Positions 1,407-11,628 of a DNA stretch of 12,372 nucleotides are shown piece after piece. Origin of the DNA: Candidatus Hodarchaeota archaeon (GTDB lineage: Archaea; Asgardarchaeota; Heimdallarchaeia; Hodarchaeales; Hodarchaeaceae); assembly GCA_016840035.1 (NCBI GenBank), contig JAEOTC010000253.1, forward strand, positions 1 through 12,372. Direction: 5' to 3'. Made by a program: the position numbers and the translations under genes. The notes beneath the pieces are model-generated. The model was not told the DNA's origin. It did not search any database and worked only from the letters and a program-made list of their open reading frames with translations. The number at the start of each line of letters is the position of its first letter. Position 1 is the stretch's first letter.

Positions 1407-3968
1407 TTAGCGTGATTTTGAAATCCTTCTTCGATAAAATGGAATTACCAAAACTAAAAGAAAAAGAAGGGGAAATCCTATACTTTGGCTAGTCTGAGTG
1501 GAAATGGGATAAGGTGTTGTTGTCGTTAGAGTAGTACTACTTGTTGGTGTAGTAGGTACAGCAGTAGTTCCAGATGCAAAAACGGTGAAAACGACCTCTG
1601 CAACCCCAATATTGTTAGCCTCATCGGTAGCTTCAATACGGAGAGTATAATCTCCTGAACTAGAAATTTCGGTAAGAATTGAACCATTAGATTTAAACCC
1701 AATAGATATATTATTTAGAAAAACCTCCACAGTAAAATTCTGGTCATCAAAAATAGTATAAACAAGGAAAACCTGTCCACCCCTAAAATCATAGGAGGAA
1801 CCATGTTGAGGGGACAAAATTTCGACCACGGGAGGAATAGAGTCGGAGGAACGAATGTCAAAGCTCAGCATATAAGAATAGGTTTCATAACCCAGATTAT
1901 CTTTAACATACACATACATCTCAACCGTTTCCCCAGCTGGCCAAGAAATGCCGGGGATAGAAAGGGAATAGGTTCCAAAAAACACTTCCTTCGGAAGGAA
2001 CATCTCCTCAAAGCCGAGAGAAGAAAAGTTCACATAGACAGACTCAACCCCTAGAAACGCATTGGGATAATTTTGAACGAGGAAGGACACATTTAATCCT
2101 TCATTGTCAAGAAGATAATGGGAGGAAATGGGATCAGAATGAAGAGTATGTTGTAGATCAGTAATGTAAATAGTAGAGGGTTCCTCACGTACCTGCGTAT
2201 ACTTGAAATAATCAGTTGGAAGAGCCCAATTTAACAAATTGTGAACAAACGGAATATTATCAATTGGATAGGGAAGATACGGGGTCGTATATGCAAACAT
2301 ATTCTTATAATCGGCAAAAATGGACTCCCCAGACATGATAAGTCTAGAATTATTCCAGGGACCAAGATGCCATTGGACCGCAGTCAGAGTCCAGCTACCC
2401 AGTGTGAAGGTCGGATATCCTTCCCAAACATTATCAGCATCGAAATCCTGATCAACTATTTCCCCAGATTGTGAAGAATTCACGATCCAGTCAGTATAAG
2501 GAAGATCAGTCCATTTAGGCATGGTATTTATTCCATCTAATCCACCAGAATAAGGTGCAATCACCGTAGATCTGCGATAGAATAAATCATTAACTCCAGA
2601 AGTAAGATTAGCAATCGGGCCAAGAGAGTTTGTGACATTGGCAATTGCATAGCCATGAAGGCCATCAATAGGTATCCCATCGTGAATTGAATCATCTTGA
2701 ATAATCATCTGACCACCAAGAGCCAAAGAGAGATTATTAAACATGGAAGGATTCCAATAACCCCCATAATCCGAATCACCCGCAAACCAGATAGTACGAT
2801 TACCATACGCCCACCAGCGGAGAATAACATCAAGTTCAACAGGTGTGAAGCTGACACGATTACCCCATCCATTTCCATTTAAGATGAGAATATCTGATTC
2901 AGCGAGAAGATAAGGATCCAATAAGTCCATTACAACTACTTCAAAGCCCCACGCAGATGCATTGGACTTAAAACCTTCAACAGAATCATCAAAAGCATTG
3001 TGGCCATTGAAAACAAAGACACGAGGAACTTTGTTTAGGATCGATACGTCGGGATCGTTCGCCCACCGCAAAAGATTATACGTAAGCGGAAGATTCTGTT
3101 GGCCGAATCCTCCCCACAATGTTGTATTCGTAAAAGTGCCTTGATAGTCGACAAAGATACTCTCTCCCATCCAAACAGCTTTAGACGATCCCTTAGGACC
3201 TATTTGCCACTGAACTGCCGCTAATGTATAACTACCCGGAACATTCAGGGGATACCCCTTCCAAATAGTATCATTATCAATTTCTTCACCGTATACCATA
3301 CCTGCATTGGAGGTGTTAATAATCCAATCTGTGAAGGGGAGGTCATCCCATTTGGGTCCAAGATTAATCCCCGACTGATTACCTGAATACGGAACAACAC
3401 AGGTAGGAGCATGAAAACTCACATTGTAGACACCAGTTGTGATAGAATCGTTTACCCAAAGAGAATTGGTAGTATTCGCTAAAACACGATAAGGAGTTCC
3501 ATCATTACTAGCTGCATCTTCTACGCCATCATCTTGAAGGGTAACATTCAGACCTAACTCCACCACGAGATAATTTAAGTCAGAAACATTGTAGGAACCC
3601 CCATAATCACTATCACCCGCAAACCAGATAGTACGATTACCAGTTGCCCACCAGTCGGAGATAAGCTGTCGATCAAGGGGAGTTAAGAAATCAGGAGCAT
3701 TAAGAATCAAAATATCTGTAAATTCAAGGTATTCATTCGTGAAATGTTCAATAATATTTAGAACGTAACCCCACTCACTGGTTTTCTGTTTAAAGCCTTC
3801 AACTTCAACATGATAGGCACCATTGCCATTAAACAAAGTAATTACAGGAAAATGGTGATCAGTGATTGTATTAACGGGAGAAGAAGTCGTTATACTCAAA
3901 CCGTTCAACGGAAAAAGAACCAACGCGACAATTAAACTAAAAATAATCCCAAAGTGCTTCAGACTCAT
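1407..3968 (-). CDS. Secreted, C-terminally anchored cell-surface (glyco)protein: two tandem class-I GATase-like (DUF4350/GIFT-like) domains, Ig-like domains, Thr-rich linker and CTERM-like anchor
   Basis: Signal peptide MSLKHFGIIFSLIVALVLFP. Internal duplication at aa ~41-303 and ~315-582 (DILILN, GNRTIWFAGDSDYGG, QDD, GESIFxDY, NLLxWA). Ig-like segment D-x-x-PPVVEILSP...YTLRIEATDEANN. Tail TTPTSSTTLTTTT-GF-hydrophobic-RRR. About 20 N-x-S/T sequons. SD AAGGAGGT lies 6 nt before the ATG. Confidence 0.8.
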   Translation of the reverse strand: MSLKHFGIIFSLIVALVLFPLNGLSITTSSPVNTITDHHFPVITLFNGNGAYHVEVEGFKQKTSEWGYVLNIIEHFTNEYLEFTDILILNAPDFLTPLDRQLISDWWATGNRTIWFAGDSDYGGSYNVSDLNYLVVELGLNVTLQDDGVEDAASNDGTPYRVLANTTNSLWVNDSITTGVYNVSFHAPTCVVPYSGNQSGINLGPKWDDLPFTDWIINTSNAGMVYGEEIDNDTIWKGYPLNVPGSYTLAAVQWQIGPKGSSKAVWMGESIFVDYQGTFTNTTLWGGFGQQNLPLTYNLLRWANDPDVSILNKVPRVFVFNGHNAFDDSVEGFKSNASAWGFEVVVMDLLDPYLLAESDILILNGNGWGNRVSFTPVELDVILRWWAYGNRTIWFAGDSDYGGYWNPSMFNNLSLALGGQMIIQDDSIHDGIPIDGLHGYAIANVTNSLGPIANLTSGVNDLFYRRSTVIAPYSGGLDGINTMPKWTDLPYTDWIVNSSQSGEIVDQDFDADNVWEGYPTFTLGSWTLTAVQWHLGPWNNSRLIMSGESIFADYKNMFAYTTPYLPYPIDNIPFVHNLLNWALPTDYFKYTQVREEPSTIYITDLQHTLHSDPISSHYLLDNEGLNVSFLVQNYPNAFLGVESVYVNFSSLGFEEMFLPKEVFFGTYSLSIPGISWPAGETVEMYVYVKDNLGYETYSYMLSFDIRSSDSIPPVVEILSPQHGSSYDFRGGQVFLVYTIFDDQNFTVEVFLNNISIGFKSNGSILTEISSSGDYTLRIEATDEANNIGVAEVVFTVFASGTTAVPTTPTSSTTLTTTTPYPISTQTSQSIGFPLLFLLVLVIPFYRRRISKSR
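2761..2817. repeat. Direct repeat copy A (51/57 nt identical to 3598-3654; perfect 31-nt core at 2775-2805)
   Basis: atcacccgcaaaccagatagtacgattacca occurs exactly at 2775-2805 and 3612-3642. It encodes the GNRTIWFAGD motif of the duplicated domain. Confidence 0.9.
3598..3654. repeat. Direct repeat copy B (perfect core at 3612-3642)
   Basis: Partner of 2761-2817, offset by 837 nt (in frame). Confidence 0.9.
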
Positions 3969-5472: not shown

Positions 5473-6306
5473 TCAAAATTTTCGTTTGAGGAAATAGATG
5501 AGTCCACCAGTTCCAACAAGGGCACCAATTATACCCATCCCAAACAACAGAAATATTTGTTGCATTCCTGTAATGAGAACGGTGTCAGTCCACCAGATAG
5601 TGATGAATTCCTCTTCAGGCAACCAATCAGAATACTTCAGGTTCCCGACGAAAAATTTGTCCTCCTCTTCAAAAGTATCAAAGTATCTGTCACTATTAAT
5701 ATCGTTACAAATAGATTTAGGAATCCAGAATTCGAAATCAGCAGAATCGATATTATGGTTCCAAGTCAAAGCTGTTCCAACACAATATCGAAAGTTATAT
5801 TCGGCAGTATTGGAAGTAAAGGTTCCTGCACCATCCTGGTAATCCCGATTGTAATGAATATTAACTGTATGTTCTTCTTCACCGTCAAAATATACAAAGA
5901 GTTCGAGAGCCTGAAAATCACCATAGGTTGAAATCGAAGGAATTTGAATGGTCTTCCACACATAATCCACGGGTAAACCATCAAGCAGGAGAGATTCTAG
6001 TAGAAGAGGGTTAGTTTCCTTGCTTCCTGAAATAACAAAAGGAAGTAAAATGTTGAGGCCAACAGAACTAGAATTTCCATTAGCAAAAGTATAATTTGCA
6101 TTAATGAAGACACGAGAAGACGTAAAACGGAAAATAATTACTTCTGATTTGAAATATACAGAATTATCATAATTTGAAGCTAGGGGAATAGTCCCATAGT
6201 TATAATCGCTAGGAATAGGGTTACCACGGGTGAGAAGCAACGGAGAAGAAAAGAAAAACAGGATTAAAAACGGGAGAATCAGAAATCGTAAGAGAAATCG
6301 ACTCAT
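5473..6306 (-). CDS. Secreted, C-terminally membrane-anchored protein, DUF4424-like
   Basis: Signal peptide MSRFLLRFLILPFLILFFFSSP. VYFKSEVI...ANYTFAN...LLPF and YCVGTALTWNHNI resemble DUF4424 motifs. Ends in a TM helix plus KRKF. ATG 6306 is preferred because GTG 6357 lies immediately next to the TATA-like box at 6360-6367. Confidence 0.65.
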   Translation of the reverse strand: MSRFLLRFLILPFLILFFFSSPLLLTRGNPIPSDYNYGTIPLASNYDNSVYFKSEVIIFRFTSSRVFINANYTFANGNSSSVGLNILLPFVISGSKETNPLLLESLLLDGLPVDYVWKTIQIPSISTYGDFQALELFVYFDGEEEHTVNIHYNRDYQDGAGTFTSNTAEYNFRYCVGTALTWNHNIDSADFEFWIPKSICNDINSDRYFDTFEEEDKFFVGNLKYSDWLPEEEFITIWWTDTVLITGMQQIFLLFGMGIIGALVGTGGLIYFLKRKF

Positions 6307-6359
6307 ACATTCAGTTAATCTGTTATCCTCCTTAAGCTTATTGGTGTTGACTGCCACCC

Positions 6360-6508: not shown

Positions 6509-8035
6509 CTAACTATAACTGATTTCTGATTTCGTTAGTACCAAAGACGCAAGATAAAAAGTAATTGCTAAAACGATATTAGCCTGTAAACTGAAGGAGA
6601 TAACCTCTTGGGCATCAGGCGTGGAAATATATGCTGCAAGAAGCAGACTAGAGAGAATGGGAGAGAATAGAATTAGTAAATAATCTACTCCAGGAAAAAG
6701 AAATATAGAAACCAAAATTCCAACAATTTCAATCCCAAAAATTGACAGAACTGTCGACTGAAGCAAATTCTTTACAGGAAAAATACGCCAAATCAAGAGA
6801 AGGACAGCTACAAAATAAATCGCCCGGAATAATAAATTAACAGCCAGCGGAAAAAAAGTAGATGTTTCAGACCTGAAGAAAATAACGAGAGCTCCAAAAG
6901 AAAAGAGGAAGTTTAGGAGAATTGGTCTGAGAAGGCTCGTAACTTTAAGAGAGAAGTAACGATAGGCAGAAATTCGTGCAAGGATCATTTCCTCCATATT
7001 ATATTCTTTTTCCATAACAATTTTAGGAAATATCGTAAATAATCCAATAAGAAGGATCGTAATGAAATGAATACAAAATAAATAGACGACAAACATTATA
7101 GAACTGAAAGAATCATCAAAGAGGATATAAACAAGGACGTAAGGAAGACAATTCAGGAGAAGCAAGGATTGTTGCCATGTAGGGGTTTGAGTAGATGTTA
7201 GGTTTAATAATTTTAAATAGAAATTAGAACTAGTGTGAAAATTACCACTTTTCATCTGTTGACCCCCTTTCATGACCTCAATAACAGTTTTCTGACATAT
7301 ATGAGTGATAACCTTGTACACAGAAAAGAGTAGAATAAAACTGAGGATGAGTAAGACGAGAAAAGATAAGGGAAAATCAGCAAAAAGGGACCGACCAAGA
7401 AGGACAGGTGAAATAAGGAACTGAAAGTCATATAAATCCAAAATTAGAAGAACAAAAAAGACAGTGAGAATCGTAAGGTAATAAATAATCGTACGAAATA
7501 TGGAAGATGGATAATAATTTTCAGAAACTCCAAGAGTTAAGACGGAGATAAGAAACCAATCAAAAAAGAAGAGGAAAAGTAACAGAAGAAAAAAAGGACT
7601 AAAGAAGAGGGGAGAAAGCCTGTTTCCGGAAAGTTTCTCAATCAAAAATACACCTAAAAAGCCACCGAGAGGGGGAAGAATCATTAAAATGGCATTGGCA
7701 AAACTTCGAGCAAAATACAGTGTCTTAAATTGAGTAGGAGAAATAACCAAGTAATCCAACATTGAAACCTGACGTTCTCGAGAAAACAGATCAAGATTGA
7801 TCGGAAAGAAGAGAAGGAAGAGAAAAAGAAGAAGTCCAAGGAGTTTAGAAGAGACTGGAGAGAAAGAATAGGAAAAAATGAAGTACAAAAAACTTGGAAG
7901 AAGGATTAGAAAAATACAGCCATAATAACACCAGAGTAAGAGGGAGGATTTGAGACGAATTTTGATCTCATGCACCGTACAATAATGAAAGAAAGGGGAA
8001 GGTAGATTATCAAAAAACAGCTCCATAAAACTCAT
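6509..8035 (-). CDS. ABC exporter permease (about 12 TM, probably two fused ABC-2-like halves)
   Basis: Highly hydrophobic, with two similar halves (FSRERQVSMLDYLVISP and IVMEKEYNMEEMILARIS resemble the ABC-2 E-R/K-E-x-x-x-x-E-x-L loop). ATG 8035 overlaps the ATPase TGA as ATGA, suggesting translational coupling. Confidence 0.75.
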   Translation of the reverse strand: MSFMELFFDNLPSPFFHYCTVHEIKIRLKSSLLLWCYYGCIFLILLPSFLYFIFSYSFSPVSSKLLGLLLFLFLLFFPINLDLFSRERQVSMLDYLVISPTQFKTLYFARSFANAILMILPPLGGFLGVFLIEKLSGNRLSPLFFSPFFLLLLFLFFFDWFLISVLTLGVSENYYPSSIFRTIIYYLTILTVFFVLLILDLYDFQFLISPVLLGRSLFADFPLSFLVLLILSFILLFSVYKVITHICQKTVIEVMKGGQQMKSGNFHTSSNFYLKLLNLTSTQTPTWQQSLLLLNCLPYVLVYILFDDSFSSIMFVVYLFCIHFITILLIGLFTIFPKIVMEKEYNMEEMILARISAYRYFSLKVTSLLRPILLNFLFSFGALVIFFRSETSTFFPLAVNLLFRAIYFVAVLLLIWRIFPVKNLLQSTVLSIFGIEIVGILVSIFLFPGVDYLLILFSPILSSLLLAAYISTPDAQEVISFSLQANIVLAITFYLASLVLTKSEISYS

Positions 8036-8991
8036 GAGAGATAAGCCATCCATTCAACCTTGGTATGGTTCAAGAAATAGATATCTTCTAAAATAACAGG
8101 ATTGGCAACAACCGTGTGATCAGACGGAGGTACATCAGAAAACAGAGAAGAGAGGGACGAAACATATTGTTGATGACAATAAAGGTCAATACCCCTAGAA
8201 GAGGTTTGGAAATATAGAATATCATCAATGGTAGCCAAATCAGGGATAGATTCACTGGAAATATCACCCCGAATTTCTACCCGTCGGAGTTGATCAAACT
8301 TATTCTTTAATTCAGAAATCCAGAGAGGTTGATGAAGCATAACACCCTTCTCAAGAATAAACACACGATCACAAACGGCTTCAATATCTTCGAGGATATG
8401 CGAAGAGATAAGAACCGTTTTATCAAAATCATCCGAGAGATCTAAGAGGAATTTACGAACCTGAATACGAGCTAAAGGGTCCAATCCACTGGTAGGTTCA
8501 TCGAGAATCAAGAGACGAGGATCATGAATAAGTGTAACCCCTAAACCTACCTTGTGTAACATCCCCTTGGAGAGTGATCTGATCGGTACATGTAAATACG
8601 AATCGATATCCAATGCTTTTATGACTCGCTCGCGCAAATCCGCTTGATCCACACGAGTATGATCACGGAGACGAGAGAAAAACTCCAAAACTTCAATCAC
8701 AGAGAAGTTGGGATAAAACGAGAAGCGTTCAGGAAGATAACCAATCAATTGCTTAATTTGAGTAGCCTCACGACTGGGATTTAGGCCGAAAATCTCAATA
8801 ATACCATAAGAAGGAAGAAGAAGGGTAGAAAGAATCCGAATAAGGGTCGTTTTACCCGCACCATTGTTACCCAGAATACCAACTGTCTCTCCCTCAGCGA
8901 CAGTAAGGTTAATGTTGTCTAAAACCACTTTATCTGGATAGTATATCCTTTTTATCTTTTCAAGATACACAGGTAAGGATTCATCAGACAT
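8032..8991 (-). CDS. ABC transporter ATP-binding protein (ABC-2/DrrA/CcmA-like exporter ATPase)
   Basis: Walker A GNNGAGKTT, signature LSKGM, Walker B/D-loop LLILDEPTSGLDP, H-loop ISSH. SD AAGGAG at 9001-9006. Confidence 0.95.
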   Translation of the reverse strand: MSDESLPVYLEKIKRIYYPDKVVLDNINLTVAEGETVGILGNNGAGKTTLIRILSTLLLPSYGIIEIFGLNPSREATQIKQLIGYLPERFSFYPNFSVIEVLEFFSRLRDHTRVDQADLRERVIKALDIDSYLHVPIRSLSKGMLHKVGLGVTLIHDPRLLILDEPTSGLDPLARIQVRKFLLDLSDDFDKTVLISSHILEDIEAVCDRVFILEKGVMLHQPLWISELKNKFDQLRRVEIRGDISSESIPDLATIDDILYFQTSSRGIDLYCHQQYVSSLSSLFSDVPPSDHTVVANPVILEDIYFLNHTKVEWMAYLS

Positions 8992-9035: not shown

Positions 9036-10550
9036 TTAAACCTCTCGGCCGAGAATTACAAAAACAATAAACCGCAAAATGAATAATCCAATGGATAACA
9101 GCAAAATAAAGATCCAAAAAAACCTACTCGAAACGGGGGTTTTCGTAAGAAAATCTGCTGTCACTCGCTGATCCTTATCTAAATCAAAGCTTACAAATTC
9201 TAACTCTTGTTGGTTTACTAGGAGTTGATAATAGTTTGCAAGTATCAACGCCAAAATAACTATACCCATACCGATACCCAGAACGTTGAACAAGTCAGCA
9301 AATACACAACAAAGGCCAATTACAAGCCAATTCCGATCAAACGTAAGATTATGACTATCAGTTCGAGTTCTGTTTAACAGCGGAGGAATTCGTTTACTAA
9401 AAAGTCTGTATAAACCTAAAAATACAGCTGTATAGACGATTCCATGCGAAAGTACTGTTAATGGGTCAGCAAATAAACCATCAAGGATATGAAAACGTGG
9501 AGAGCAGAAGTAAGCTAAACCCCCAGTAGGGACGTATTGCTCCGCTGCAGTATTCAATTGGTAAGTTCCCAATATCCATACAAAGATTGAGGAGGAATTT
9601 TCCCTTCCACTCGAATTCCAAACAACTTGACTAAGAAAACGGATAAGAGCGAAGAAAGTTGTCGTTAAAAGGATTGATAGCAAGGGGGAAGAGAGAGAAA
9701 CCTTGTGAGATTCTACATCGTCAAAATTATTACTATTAGATATCTGGAGCGACAAAAATGTCACCAAAAGGAAAATACCAATTGCAAACCATACAGAAAG
9801 AAGTGATAAATGAGGAAGGTTTAAGCTATGAGAACGAACGGGACTATAACGAAAGAATAAGAAGCCAAAAGCATTAAGACCCTCTTCTCCGATACAATAA
9901 AGAATAGCTAAAAAAATTCCCCGTGCTGATGTAAGTTCACCCGGTCCTTCTAAAATATTGTTGGAAGCAAGAAACGCCTGCATAATTTGCACCCAAATCC
10001 CACTTGCCAGAAAAATCGATATTCCCGAGCCTAATCCCCAACCTTTATTAATAAATTCATTTAAATAGATGATAATAATACCTGCTATAATCAATTGTCC
10101 GACAATTGAAAATTGAGTAAATATATCTAAATCTGTACCATATAATCCTGAAAGGATTAAAATCAAGGCCATAATTACAGTAAAAACGATACCCAAGAAA
10201 ATTCTGATACGATTGTACCGTTTAAGCTCATCAGGATGGGTAGGATCAAATTGGTAAAGATTGGTTCTTAAAAAAATGTGAAATACAAATCCAGCAGTTA
10301 AAAGTGGTAGAATCCCTAATTCGGTAGAAGTACCATGCTTAGAAGCCCCAATAATACGAATAATGCCATAAGGATCTGCTTCGCCGAGATTAGCCCCTAT
10401 TAGAGGAATGACGGCTAGCAGAGAGTATACAATGATAACCCCTAGAGTAATAAAGACCTTAACAGAAAAATTATCTTTATTAAGCGAGTTTATAAGCATT
10501 TTTTTAAGTAAGAAGCTGTTGTTTTCTTTTCCCAGATTTTCTTCCACCAT
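9036..10550 (-). CDS. secY: Divergent SecY/Sec61alpha paralogue with reduced cytosolic loops and an extra C-terminal TM helix
   Basis: Motifs in SecY order: IPLIG; plug DPYGIIRIIGASKHGT; ELGILPLLTAG; GLYG; QLIIAGIIIIYLNEFINKGWGLGSGISIF; PTGGLAYFCSP; DP...IVY; FADLFNVLGIGMGIVI...YYQ. ATG 10550 is preferred (GAGG 6 nt upstream). The symbol denotes homology only; this is probably not the housekeeping copy. Confidence 0.9.
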   Translation of the reverse strand: MVEENLGKENNSFLLKKMLINSLNKDNFSVKVFITLGVIIVYSLLAVIPLIGANLGEADPYGIIRIIGASKHGTSTELGILPLLTAGFVFHIFLRTNLYQFDPTHPDELKRYNRIRIFLGIVFTVIMALILILSGLYGTDLDIFTQFSIVGQLIIAGIIIIYLNEFINKGWGLGSGISIFLASGIWVQIMQAFLASNNILEGPGELTSARGIFLAILYCIGEEGLNAFGFLFFRYSPVRSHSLNLPHLSLLSVWFAIGIFLLVTFLSLQISNSNNFDDVESHKVSLSSPLLSILLTTTFFALIRFLSQVVWNSSGRENSSSIFVWILGTYQLNTAAEQYVPTGGLAYFCSPRFHILDGLFADPLTVLSHGIVYTAVFLGLYRLFSKRIPPLLNRTRTDSHNLTFDRNWLVIGLCCVFADLFNVLGIGMGIVILALILANYYQLLVNQQELEFVSFDLDKDQRVTADFLTKTPVSSRFFWIFILLLSIGLFILRFIVFVILGREV

Positions 10551-10628
10551 TCTCATCCTCTCAGCCTAGAAATTGCAGTCAAATTTCAAAAGTATTCTCT
10601 CCAATCTTGATAAGAAAGTGATTCTAAG

Positions 10629-10636
10629 TTATATAA
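10629..10636 (-). promoter_or_regulatory. Putative TATA box (TTATATAA) upstream of the secY paralogue
   Basis: Archaeal TATA consensus ~80 nt upstream of ATG 10550, in the intergenic gap. Confidence 0.45.
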
Positions 10637-10703
10637 TGCTTATGGTGCAATTATTTGACAAAAATCGGGAAAAAAGGAATAATGCAGTGTAGTGGTCAGT
10701 AGA

Positions 10704-11465
10704 CTAAGTGAGTAAATGCTTGAAACGAGGGGAAATCGTTAATCCTCTTCCATTTTGCTCAATAACATCATGAGTCCTTAAAATTTTTACATAATATGAC
10801 AGTAACGATTTGTGGATCCCTAAAGTTATACAGAGATCCTTTTGAAAAACCATTGTAGAACTTCCATGCAAACATTGAAGGATTTCTGCAATATTTTGGT
10901 TCTGAAGTAACGAAAATAATAATCGAGCATCTTCTGACCAATATTGGGACGTATCAAAATAATGGTTTGACTTTCCAAATTTTACCATTTCAATTTTACC
11001 TTCTTGTTCAAGAATACGCAACCAATATTGCACTGAACCCATGGCGACATTTGAAAGACGAATTATTCCACGAAGAGATACTCCTGGATGGTTTAATATG
11101 GTTGTTGAAATTACTTCACGAGTATCACGAGTTTCTTTCCATTCTTGAGACGAATGGATCATCTTATACAAGTTATAGACAACTGGAGGAATAAAAAATG
11201 CTGAAAGATGAATCCTATCAACTACGTGAGTCGACAAGCTACAAAAAGGATCAGATAGATCAGGGTTTAGGAAAAAGGACGATGCTACCATATCGGGAAT
11301 AACTACTTCGCCTTGATAGGAAGCCACCTGCTGGGGAACAGTATTCAGTGGTGAATTTCCAAATACGGCGAAGATAGAGAGAACTAGAAGTAGAACGGCT
11401 ATGATACCTCTTGCATGTAACCAAGTGATACGGAAGCGAATGAGTAATCCCCTCTTGATGATAAT
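10704..11465 (-). CDS. Double winged-helix transcriptional regulator (COG3398/ArsR-MarR-like) with a probable N-terminal TM segment; start uncertain
   Basis: HTH1: TREVISTTILNHPGVSLRGIIRLSNVAMGSVQYWLRILEQEGKI. HTH2: QKDLCITLGIHKSLLSYYVKILRTHDVI. The frame stays open upstream of the track's GTG 11327 to 11480 and encodes RGIIAVLLLVLSIFAFVFG. SD AAGGAG precedes in-frame ATC 11468 and ATT 11465. Confidence 0.75.
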   Translation of the reverse strand: MIIKRGLLIRFRITWLHARGIIAVLLLVLSIFAVFGNSPLNTVPQQVASYQGEVVIPDMVASSFFLNPDLSDPFCSLSTHVVDRIHLSAFFIPPVVYNLYKMIHSSQEWKETRDTREVISTTILNHPGVSLRGIIRLSNVAMGSVQYWLRILEQEGKIEMVKFGKSNHYFDTSQYWSEDARLLFSLLQNQNIAEILQCLHGSSTMVFQKDLCITLGIHKSLLSYYVKILRTHDVIEQNGRGLTISPRFKHLLT

Positions 11466-11628
11466 GATTCGTTCTCCTTTTTATGCTTTTCTTCTCCCTC
11501 ATCAGAAGTCAAAAGATTGTATTACAATCTTTAATCACAAGAGGTCGAACAAAAATGTCAAAAATGATTAGTAGTCCTCAGGAAAAATTTTAGAGAAAGA
11601 ATAAGAGAAAATCAGATGCAATTGGGAT

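Follow-up and report, generated by a model that had tools for sequence, protein, structure and literature searches.

A SecY paralog fused to a SecE membrane helix

The window, meaning the whole 12,372-nucleotide stretch of Hodarchaeales DNA analysed, carries on its minus strand an intact reading frame of 506 codons (9036-10556) whose product matches the SecY family in Pfam (E 2e-15) and Sec61alpha (E 3e-31), with Hodarchaeales proteins as its closest matches. A conserved promoter element and the gene for a winged-helix regulator lie upstream. The features, from the regulator to the end of the fused gene, are:

10704-11465 (-): tandem winged-helix regulator (HVO_0163-like) with an N-terminal hydrophobic signal or anchor; its start is probably ATT or ATC (Pfam PF24266, E 2e-10; homologs)
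10629-10662 (-): conserved promoter element and candidate operator, with an imperfect palindrome ending TTGCACCA, a purine run and a TATA-like box (motif comparison)
9036-10556 (-): gene for a 506-residue single-chain SecY-SecE fusion, a SecY paralog with ten TM helices and a SecE-derived eleventh (Pfam SecY, Sec61alpha, model)
10470-10556 (-): N-terminal segment, in which the Arg24-type ribosome-contact loop is lost (alignment; PMC11186639)
10320-10385 (-): plug, with Arg67 invariant and Glu79 nearly invariant (Pfam Plug_translocon, E 0.01; alignment)
10170-10172 (-): Met129 in place of lateral-gate Gln127, where canonical Hodarchaeales SecY has Glu (alignment)
9804-9968 (-): outer hinge loop 5/6, the best-kept large loop, which is the TRAPalpha/TMEM147 site in Sec61 (conservation; PMC11186639)
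9687-9740 (-): loop 6/7, 6 residues shorter, without a hairpin and with one basic residue (span, clade identity, coil in the model)
9639-9647 (-): Leu304, which takes the place of Asn300 in the lateral gate, and Arg306, a clade-invariant residue that is Tyr in canonical SecY (alignment)
9321-9392 (-): what is left of loop 8/9, running into TM9; 28 residues are absent, including the conserved Arg (alignment, anchor spans, 10-residue coil in the model)
9129-9221 (-): C-terminal tail of SecY and the linker that joins it to the SecE helix (alignment, model)
9039-9128 (-): TM helix derived from SecE/Sec61gamma, residues 477-506, without the SecE amphipathic helix (identity to own SecE, HMM, hhalign)

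An AlphaFold model of the protein, built from a 68-row alignment (pLDDT 86.9, pTM 0.89), has as its best structural match Sec61alpha of the multipass translocon (7tm3_1; Z 35.4, rmsd 2.5 Å over 401 residues); predicted models lean to the closed state, so this match is weak evidence for a latched-shut channel. The ten-TM fold and the sequence homology are both present, and the protein belongs to the SecY family by fold and descent. It is without the defining features of the co-translational translocon and of the bacterial accessory Sec system.

The eleventh helix, present in all members of the fused clade, is a fused SecE membrane helix. The last 13 residues of the window protein include 10 that are identical to SecE of the same genome, and in eight clade members 9-14 of the last 20 residues are identical to SecE. 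When an HMM of the tails was compared with 33,317 six-frame ORFs of the genome, the best non-self match was the single SecE (E 7.8e-4), and hhalign gave SecE 87% (E 3.8e-6) against 7% for Sec61beta, which rules out the latter as the origin of the tail. The match spans just the last 20-23 positions of SecE, the N-terminal amphipathic helix being absent, and residues 477-502 are modelled as helix at a pLDDT of about 80-87.

The unfused accessory secY genes of relatives (G013, G014 and P0027) have their own secE copy directly upstream, which offers a source for the fused helix. Because the fused order is secY and then secE, a rearrangement would have been required; tandem duplication is one conceivable route, and tandem copies do exist. 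Two fused-type genes (L139 and L394) are arranged in tandem, and a separate copy of the promoter motif precedes each of them. Separate secE2-secY2 pairs occur at L039 (G013:C8), L040 (G014:C6) and L397. In the G013 and G014 pairs, loop 8/9 has degenerated along with the amphipathic helix of SecE, and a stop codon interrupts the secY of G014.

The source genome, which is 87% complete, has four secY genes: the window copy, a normal copy on contig C71 and, on C277 and C289, two that resemble the window copy. A contaminating contig was ruled out as the origin of the window copy, since its GC content (0.38 vs 0.36) and tetranucleotide distance are unremarkable and relatives G002 and G007 carry both SecY types. 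The housekeeping secY (L321, G000:C71) is arranged head-to-head with a ribophorin I-like gene, outside the ribosomal protein operon, as in 20/20 Hodarchaeales cases read. Downstream of the fused gene, after a 44-nt gap, lie genes for an ABC ATPase and a two-part permease without a Pfam family (6509-8991, minus strand; 22-nt overlap), followed by two secreted proteins with C-terminal membrane anchors and no family above the cut-off (5473-6357 and 1407-3968, both minus strand), the longer of which (1407-3968) has an internal repeat and a Thr-rich linker.

Loss of loop 8/9 and erosion of the other ribosome contacts

The sequence-only reading had proposed that the loop between TM8 and TM9 is largely deleted, leaving 24 residues (aa 389-412), and translation of 9321-9392 (-) matches the residues that it quoted. 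The loop is indeed shortened, but the final residues of this stretch already belong to TM9; in the model TM8 (365-389) and TM9 (400-423) are linked by a 10-residue coil. The loss is in frame, as proposed, and slightly larger than the 25 or so residues estimated, at 26-28. Alignment to human Sec61alpha, in which residues 389 and 411 correspond to 378 and 426, leaves the window protein 26 residues short, and relative to canonical Asgard SecY the loop is 28 residues shorter. Counted from the Phe of TM8 to the Asp of TM9, the 12 fused proteins (the window protein and 11 relatives) all have 36 residues, compared with 64 in 27/27 full-loop Hodarchaeales SecY proteins and in other archaeal outgroups, and 60-62 in eukaryotes. 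The predicted loss of the conserved Arg was also borne out by alignment against canonical SecY/Sec61: no full-length loop was found, and the Arg405 column is a gap in 12/12 fused proteins and Arg in 27/27 with a full loop. An in-frame gap of equal length, shared by 12 proteins whose genomes were assembled independently, rules out chance as well as an assembly error or frameshift.

Shortened loops also occur elsewhere. An independent degenerate secY from another Heimdallarchaeia family (L059, G061:C68:77066-78163) has a loop 8/9 that is 13 residues shorter; this gene is inserted opposite to ribosomal protein genes and is the sister of the canonical secY of its own genome. A second secY of 433 residues (L388, G053:C209) has an intact loop 8/9 and a shortened outer loop 7/8. 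Multiple secY matches in other Asgard genomes were rejected as paralogs in 9 of 10 cases checked, these being pieces of one gene split at loop 8/9.

In a mammalian structure, the ribosome is contacted by loop 8/9, loop 6/7 and the N-terminal helix of Sec61gamma, with loop 8/9 and gamma making the largest contacts (PMC4081569), and a fourth contact, the N-terminal Arg24 loop, is conserved in archaea (PMC11186639). All four are lost or eroded in the fused clade. Loop 6/7 spans 24-26 residues against 32 in canonical SecY (6-8 fewer), is modelled as a coil with no strands, such that the basic beta-hairpin is absent, and shows 20% identity within the clade and 8% to canonical SecY; together with loop 8/9 it is the least conserved region of the clade (19-20%). 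No clade member has an Arg at the Arg24 position. Given that point mutations in loop 8 are by themselves enough to lower 80S binding strongly (PMC2171681), erosion of all four contacts makes it probable that the fused proteins do not dock ribosomes, a prediction of the sequence-only reading that is thus well supported by the sequences.

The outer face has been kept while the inner face has been stripped. Hinge loop 5/6 has 62% identity within the clade and 70% to canonical SecY. In Sec61, this loop binds TRAPalpha and TMEM147 (PMC11186639), and a TRAPalpha-SecY contact has been predicted for Heimdallarchaeota; conservation of the loop could be structural only. The same pattern might be expected of a dislocation or quality-control channel through which stalled or misfolded membrane proteins are pulled back for degradation, and an SPFH/Band 7 gene and a TPR gene do precede the C277 and C289 copies. 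We nevertheless consider such a role very unlikely, as each of these neighbors is found beside one copy only, neither a protease nor an AAA ATPase is linked, and the gate appears biased toward closure (see below).

A retained seal and an apolar lateral gate

The window protein retains the plug residues R67 and E79, and its pore ring is aliphatic at 6/6 positions (I82, L86, I179, L183, L296 and I434). The polar cluster of the lateral gate (T86, Q127 and N300) is not kept, the corresponding residues being T87, M129 and L304. In all 12 fused proteins the Gln127, Asn300 and Asn288 positions are apolar or small, the Gly82 position is always Leu, and the Tyr302 position is always Arg; the new clade-invariant residues are Leu83 and Arg306, the latter in TM7. 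Housekeeping Hodarchaeales SecY proteins have Glu at the position of human Sec61 Gln127 and Asp at that of Asn300. In yeast, Q129L and N302L stabilise closed Sec61 and let only very hydrophobic signals pass (PMC3518225). This effect rules out hydrophobic gate substitutions as a means of opening the channel and, by analogy, suggests that the gate of the fused clade is biased shut. A bias toward closure is not equal to closure, since the yeast gate mutants still insert very hydrophobic segments.

These features bear on two of the roles that the sequence-only reading had suggested. The first, a small-molecule pore, is contradicted. One report describes the passage of sugars through SecY with a weakened seal (bioRxiv 10.1101/378786), and the new Arg306 in TM7 could be taken to suit a channel that now passes ions, small molecules or lipids. 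Both seals, the plug and the six ring residues, are intact in the fused protein, however, and the gate changes favor closure (PMC3518225), which leaves this the most improbable of the roles considered.

The second, a post-translational role, is weakened in its ordinary form and survives in a narrower one. The gate leans toward the closed state and no match to SecA, SecDF or Sec62 was found in the source genome (87% complete), so export of the usual kind would have no visible motor. A translocase or insertase limited to a few substrates, namely signals of very high hydrophobicity or single membrane helices, and opened either by these or by a partner, would fit the retention of the entire channel fold, plug and ring, and the FtsX-type ABC permeases that share the promoter motif are possible clients. 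The known openers of the channel stand against it: the ribosome, SecA and the FN3 domain of Sec63 all use loops 6/7 and 8/9, both of which are gone. The adjacent ABC ATPase and permease are unsupported as a dedicated motor, since the pair is not conserved beside other family members (13 loci). The processing of highly hydrophobic signals by the yeast gate mutants (PMC3518225) keeps a selective insertase in contention, although we judge it unlikely overall.

Origin, distribution and selection

In a SecY tree computed with the SecE tails removed, the 12 fused proteins form one clade (100/100) inside the SecY of a single genus (100/100), adjoining degenerate unfused paralogs, on long branches. 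Among 24 genomes of the order, fused genes are found in three, a broken remnant in one (L038, G003:C12:193239-193891, with several stops), an intact-loop second copy in seven and a degenerate copy in two. No fused type was found outside the genus among the best 150 matches listed from 379 Asgard genomes. The second secY of G001 (L041, G001:C312), which groups with other Asgard lineages and lies on a 2-kb contig, is probably a binning contaminant.

The fused clade is under relaxed but clearly purifying selection. Pairwise dN/dS within it is 0.20-0.40 (0.52 for one near-identical pair with 16 changes), about ten times higher than the 0.02-0.04 of housekeeping secY. These values and the intact frames rule out a pseudogene for the clade as a whole. 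Purifying selection could, in principle, act on a slowly decaying spare translocon only to keep it folded, sealed and harmless, or maintain a decoy that titrates partners or inhibitors of the real channel. Such a reading would accommodate the long branches, the patchy presence, and the gradation in which second copies range from intact to degenerate and end in a broken remnant. It sits less easily with the exact 28-residue gap, the fused SecE helix and the invariant Leu83 and Arg306, all of which persist over a saturated synonymous distance, with retention of the promoter motif, or with the multiplication of the gene (three copies in the source genome and a tandem pair in another), and we consider it improbable.

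A promoter motif and regulator shared with other spare translocon genes

In the element upstream of the fused genes, a TATA-like box comes after an imperfect palindrome whose last bases are TTG(C/T)ACCA. Its pattern has matches in 13/22 genomes, with 18 sites against two for a reversed control, and 16 of the 18 are outside coding-like repeats, mostly before secY paralogs or LolD/FtsX-type ABC operons. To avoid circularity, secY promoters were scored with a matrix trained on non-secY sites only. Upstream of 20 housekeeping secY genes the scores were below 10, and upstream of 19 accessory copies (8 second copies that are intact, 2 that are degenerate and 9 fused genes) they were 12.5-29. Although the relatives counted are not independent of one another, housekeeping and accessory genes are also separated within single genomes. 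Conversely, a secY-trained matrix gave 13-27 for four extra OST3/6-like genes and 7.4 or less for housekeeping OST3/6-like genes. The motif also precedes extra secE and FtsX-type ABC genes. Two extra, diverged OST3/OST6-like genes of the source genome (G000 C171:1950-2405 and C96; L364 and L365) both have the motif upstream.

The tandem winged-helix family with an N-terminal hydrophobic segment is encoded beside 7 intact, 2 degenerate and 7 fused secY loci, and only two genes of the source genome are above the family cut-off. The fused clade, as judged from these sequences, stems from a second secY copy that already belonged to a cassette with the promoter motif and the winged-helix regulator. 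The C277 and C289 copies, which are inside operons, have neither motif nor regulator; that is, two of the three fused copies of the source genome are without both. We infer that the winged-helix protein binds the motif, and that its signal segment may sense export capacity. This second suggestion draws on Vibrio VemP-secD2F2, in which an export monitor is encoded beside spare export genes (PMC11470409). The resemblance to VemP, SecM and MifM would be that a signal-bearing product encoded beside spare export genes may report export capacity; those systems act by translation arrest in cis, whereas the candidate sensor in Hodarchaeales is a signal-bearing DNA-binding protein acting with a promoter motif. 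In the window, the start region of the regulator (11454-11468, minus strand) has no ATG, GTG or TTG before the signal segment, and the ATG of homologs aligns with an AAG codon. ATC and ATT codons follow a purine-rich SD, and the gene has either a non-standard start or a lost start codon.

A possible scaffold for outer-face biogenesis factors

The explanation that we tentatively favor, while rating its chances as somewhat less than even, is that the fused protein is an inducible, self-clamped, sealed and ribosome-free SecYE that serves as a scaffold or chaperone for biogenesis factors at the outer face. In this model, an extra, separately transcribed SecY would have gained the SecE membrane helix by fusion, and the single chain would clamp itself with no competition for the cell's only SecE. 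Ribosomes would not dock, the gate would be biased shut, and plug and pore ring would keep the channel sealed. The outer face, through hinge loop 5/6 and loop 7/8, might still bind TRAP/OST-type factors, and the scaffold would act on proteins already inserted or exported. The signal-bearing regulator would switch the fused gene on together with other spare translocon parts, perhaps upon export stress. The conservation profile, in which the hinge loop is the best-kept large loop and loops 6/7 and 8/9 are the worst kept, counts for a scaffold; the lack of motif and regulator at two of three copies in the source genome, the raised dN/dS, the patchy family and the one broken remnant count against it. 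A complex prediction with the co-regulated OST3/6-like protein scored 0.00, which speaks neither for nor against a contact.

The scaffold model has a precedent in the multipass translocon, where Sec61 is latched shut and serves as a scaffold for other biogenesis factors. There, Sec61 is ribosome-bound and held shut by a partner, while the fused protein has lost its ribosome contacts and would be closed by its own sequence. Compared with archaeal SecYE-beta/Sec61 in general, the fused protein shares the ten-helix fold, plug, pore ring, hinge, TM10 glycine motif and SecE clamp helix. It differs in having one chain for SecY and SecE, in being an accessory gene in a genome with a normal secY, and in its deleted loop 8/9, eroded loop 6/7 and Arg24 loop, absent SecE amphipathic helix and apolar gate cluster. 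Streptococcal and staphylococcal SecY2, yeast Ssh1 and plastid SCY2 are likewise second, diverged SecY proteins beside a housekeeping copy. SecY2 works with a dedicated SecA2 and Asp proteins, and Ssh1 binds ribosomes (2ww9); neither SecA2, Asp proteins nor a glycoprotein substrate is linked at the 13 loci. To our knowledge, none of SecY2, Ssh1 and SCY2 is a SecE fusion or is without loop 8/9.

No description of paralogs of the fused type was found in the literature searched, in which subscription papers are incompletely covered, and a study of the Asgard translocon (PMC11417166) makes no mention of copies or paralogs. What is new here is that the SecE helix is assigned quantitatively, that the fused gene is traced to a regulated second-copy cassette, that a promoter motif and its regulon are described, and that the gate is read as closed. 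Loop 8/9 and its Arg have been treated as universal because every known SecY driver engages the cytosolic loops. A natural, selected, SecE-fused family without loop 8/9 is a ready test of a channel without ribosome or SecA, and bears on how proteins are handled post-translationally in archaea, which are without SecA. It also illustrates how a translocon can be duplicated, specialised and placed under its own transcriptional control in a lineage that has been proposed to be nearest to eukaryotes among the archaea. Because the fused family is recent and nested inside one genus, it represents a parallel experiment and no ancestor of any eukaryotic protein.

More broadly, a Hodarchaeales export-stress regulon might turn on spare translocon parts, with the SecY-SecE chain of one lineage having a job independent of ribosome and SecA, either in post-translational insertion or as a platform for glycosylation and folding; we hold this wider proposal to be plausible, with the balance leaning against it. 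Fusion combined with loop shortening has happened at least one further time, in P0135 and perhaps in P0174; if the proposal is true, the Sec channel would have reached a third mode of working by a route used repeatedly among the archaeal kin of eukaryotes. These two unbinned or poorly placed proteins combine a short loop 8/9 with a C-terminal helix. The helix of P0135 is SecE (E 7e-11), while that of P0174 is suggestive of SecE. A single origin of all the fusions was rejected for P0135 (AU p 0.011, on long branches).
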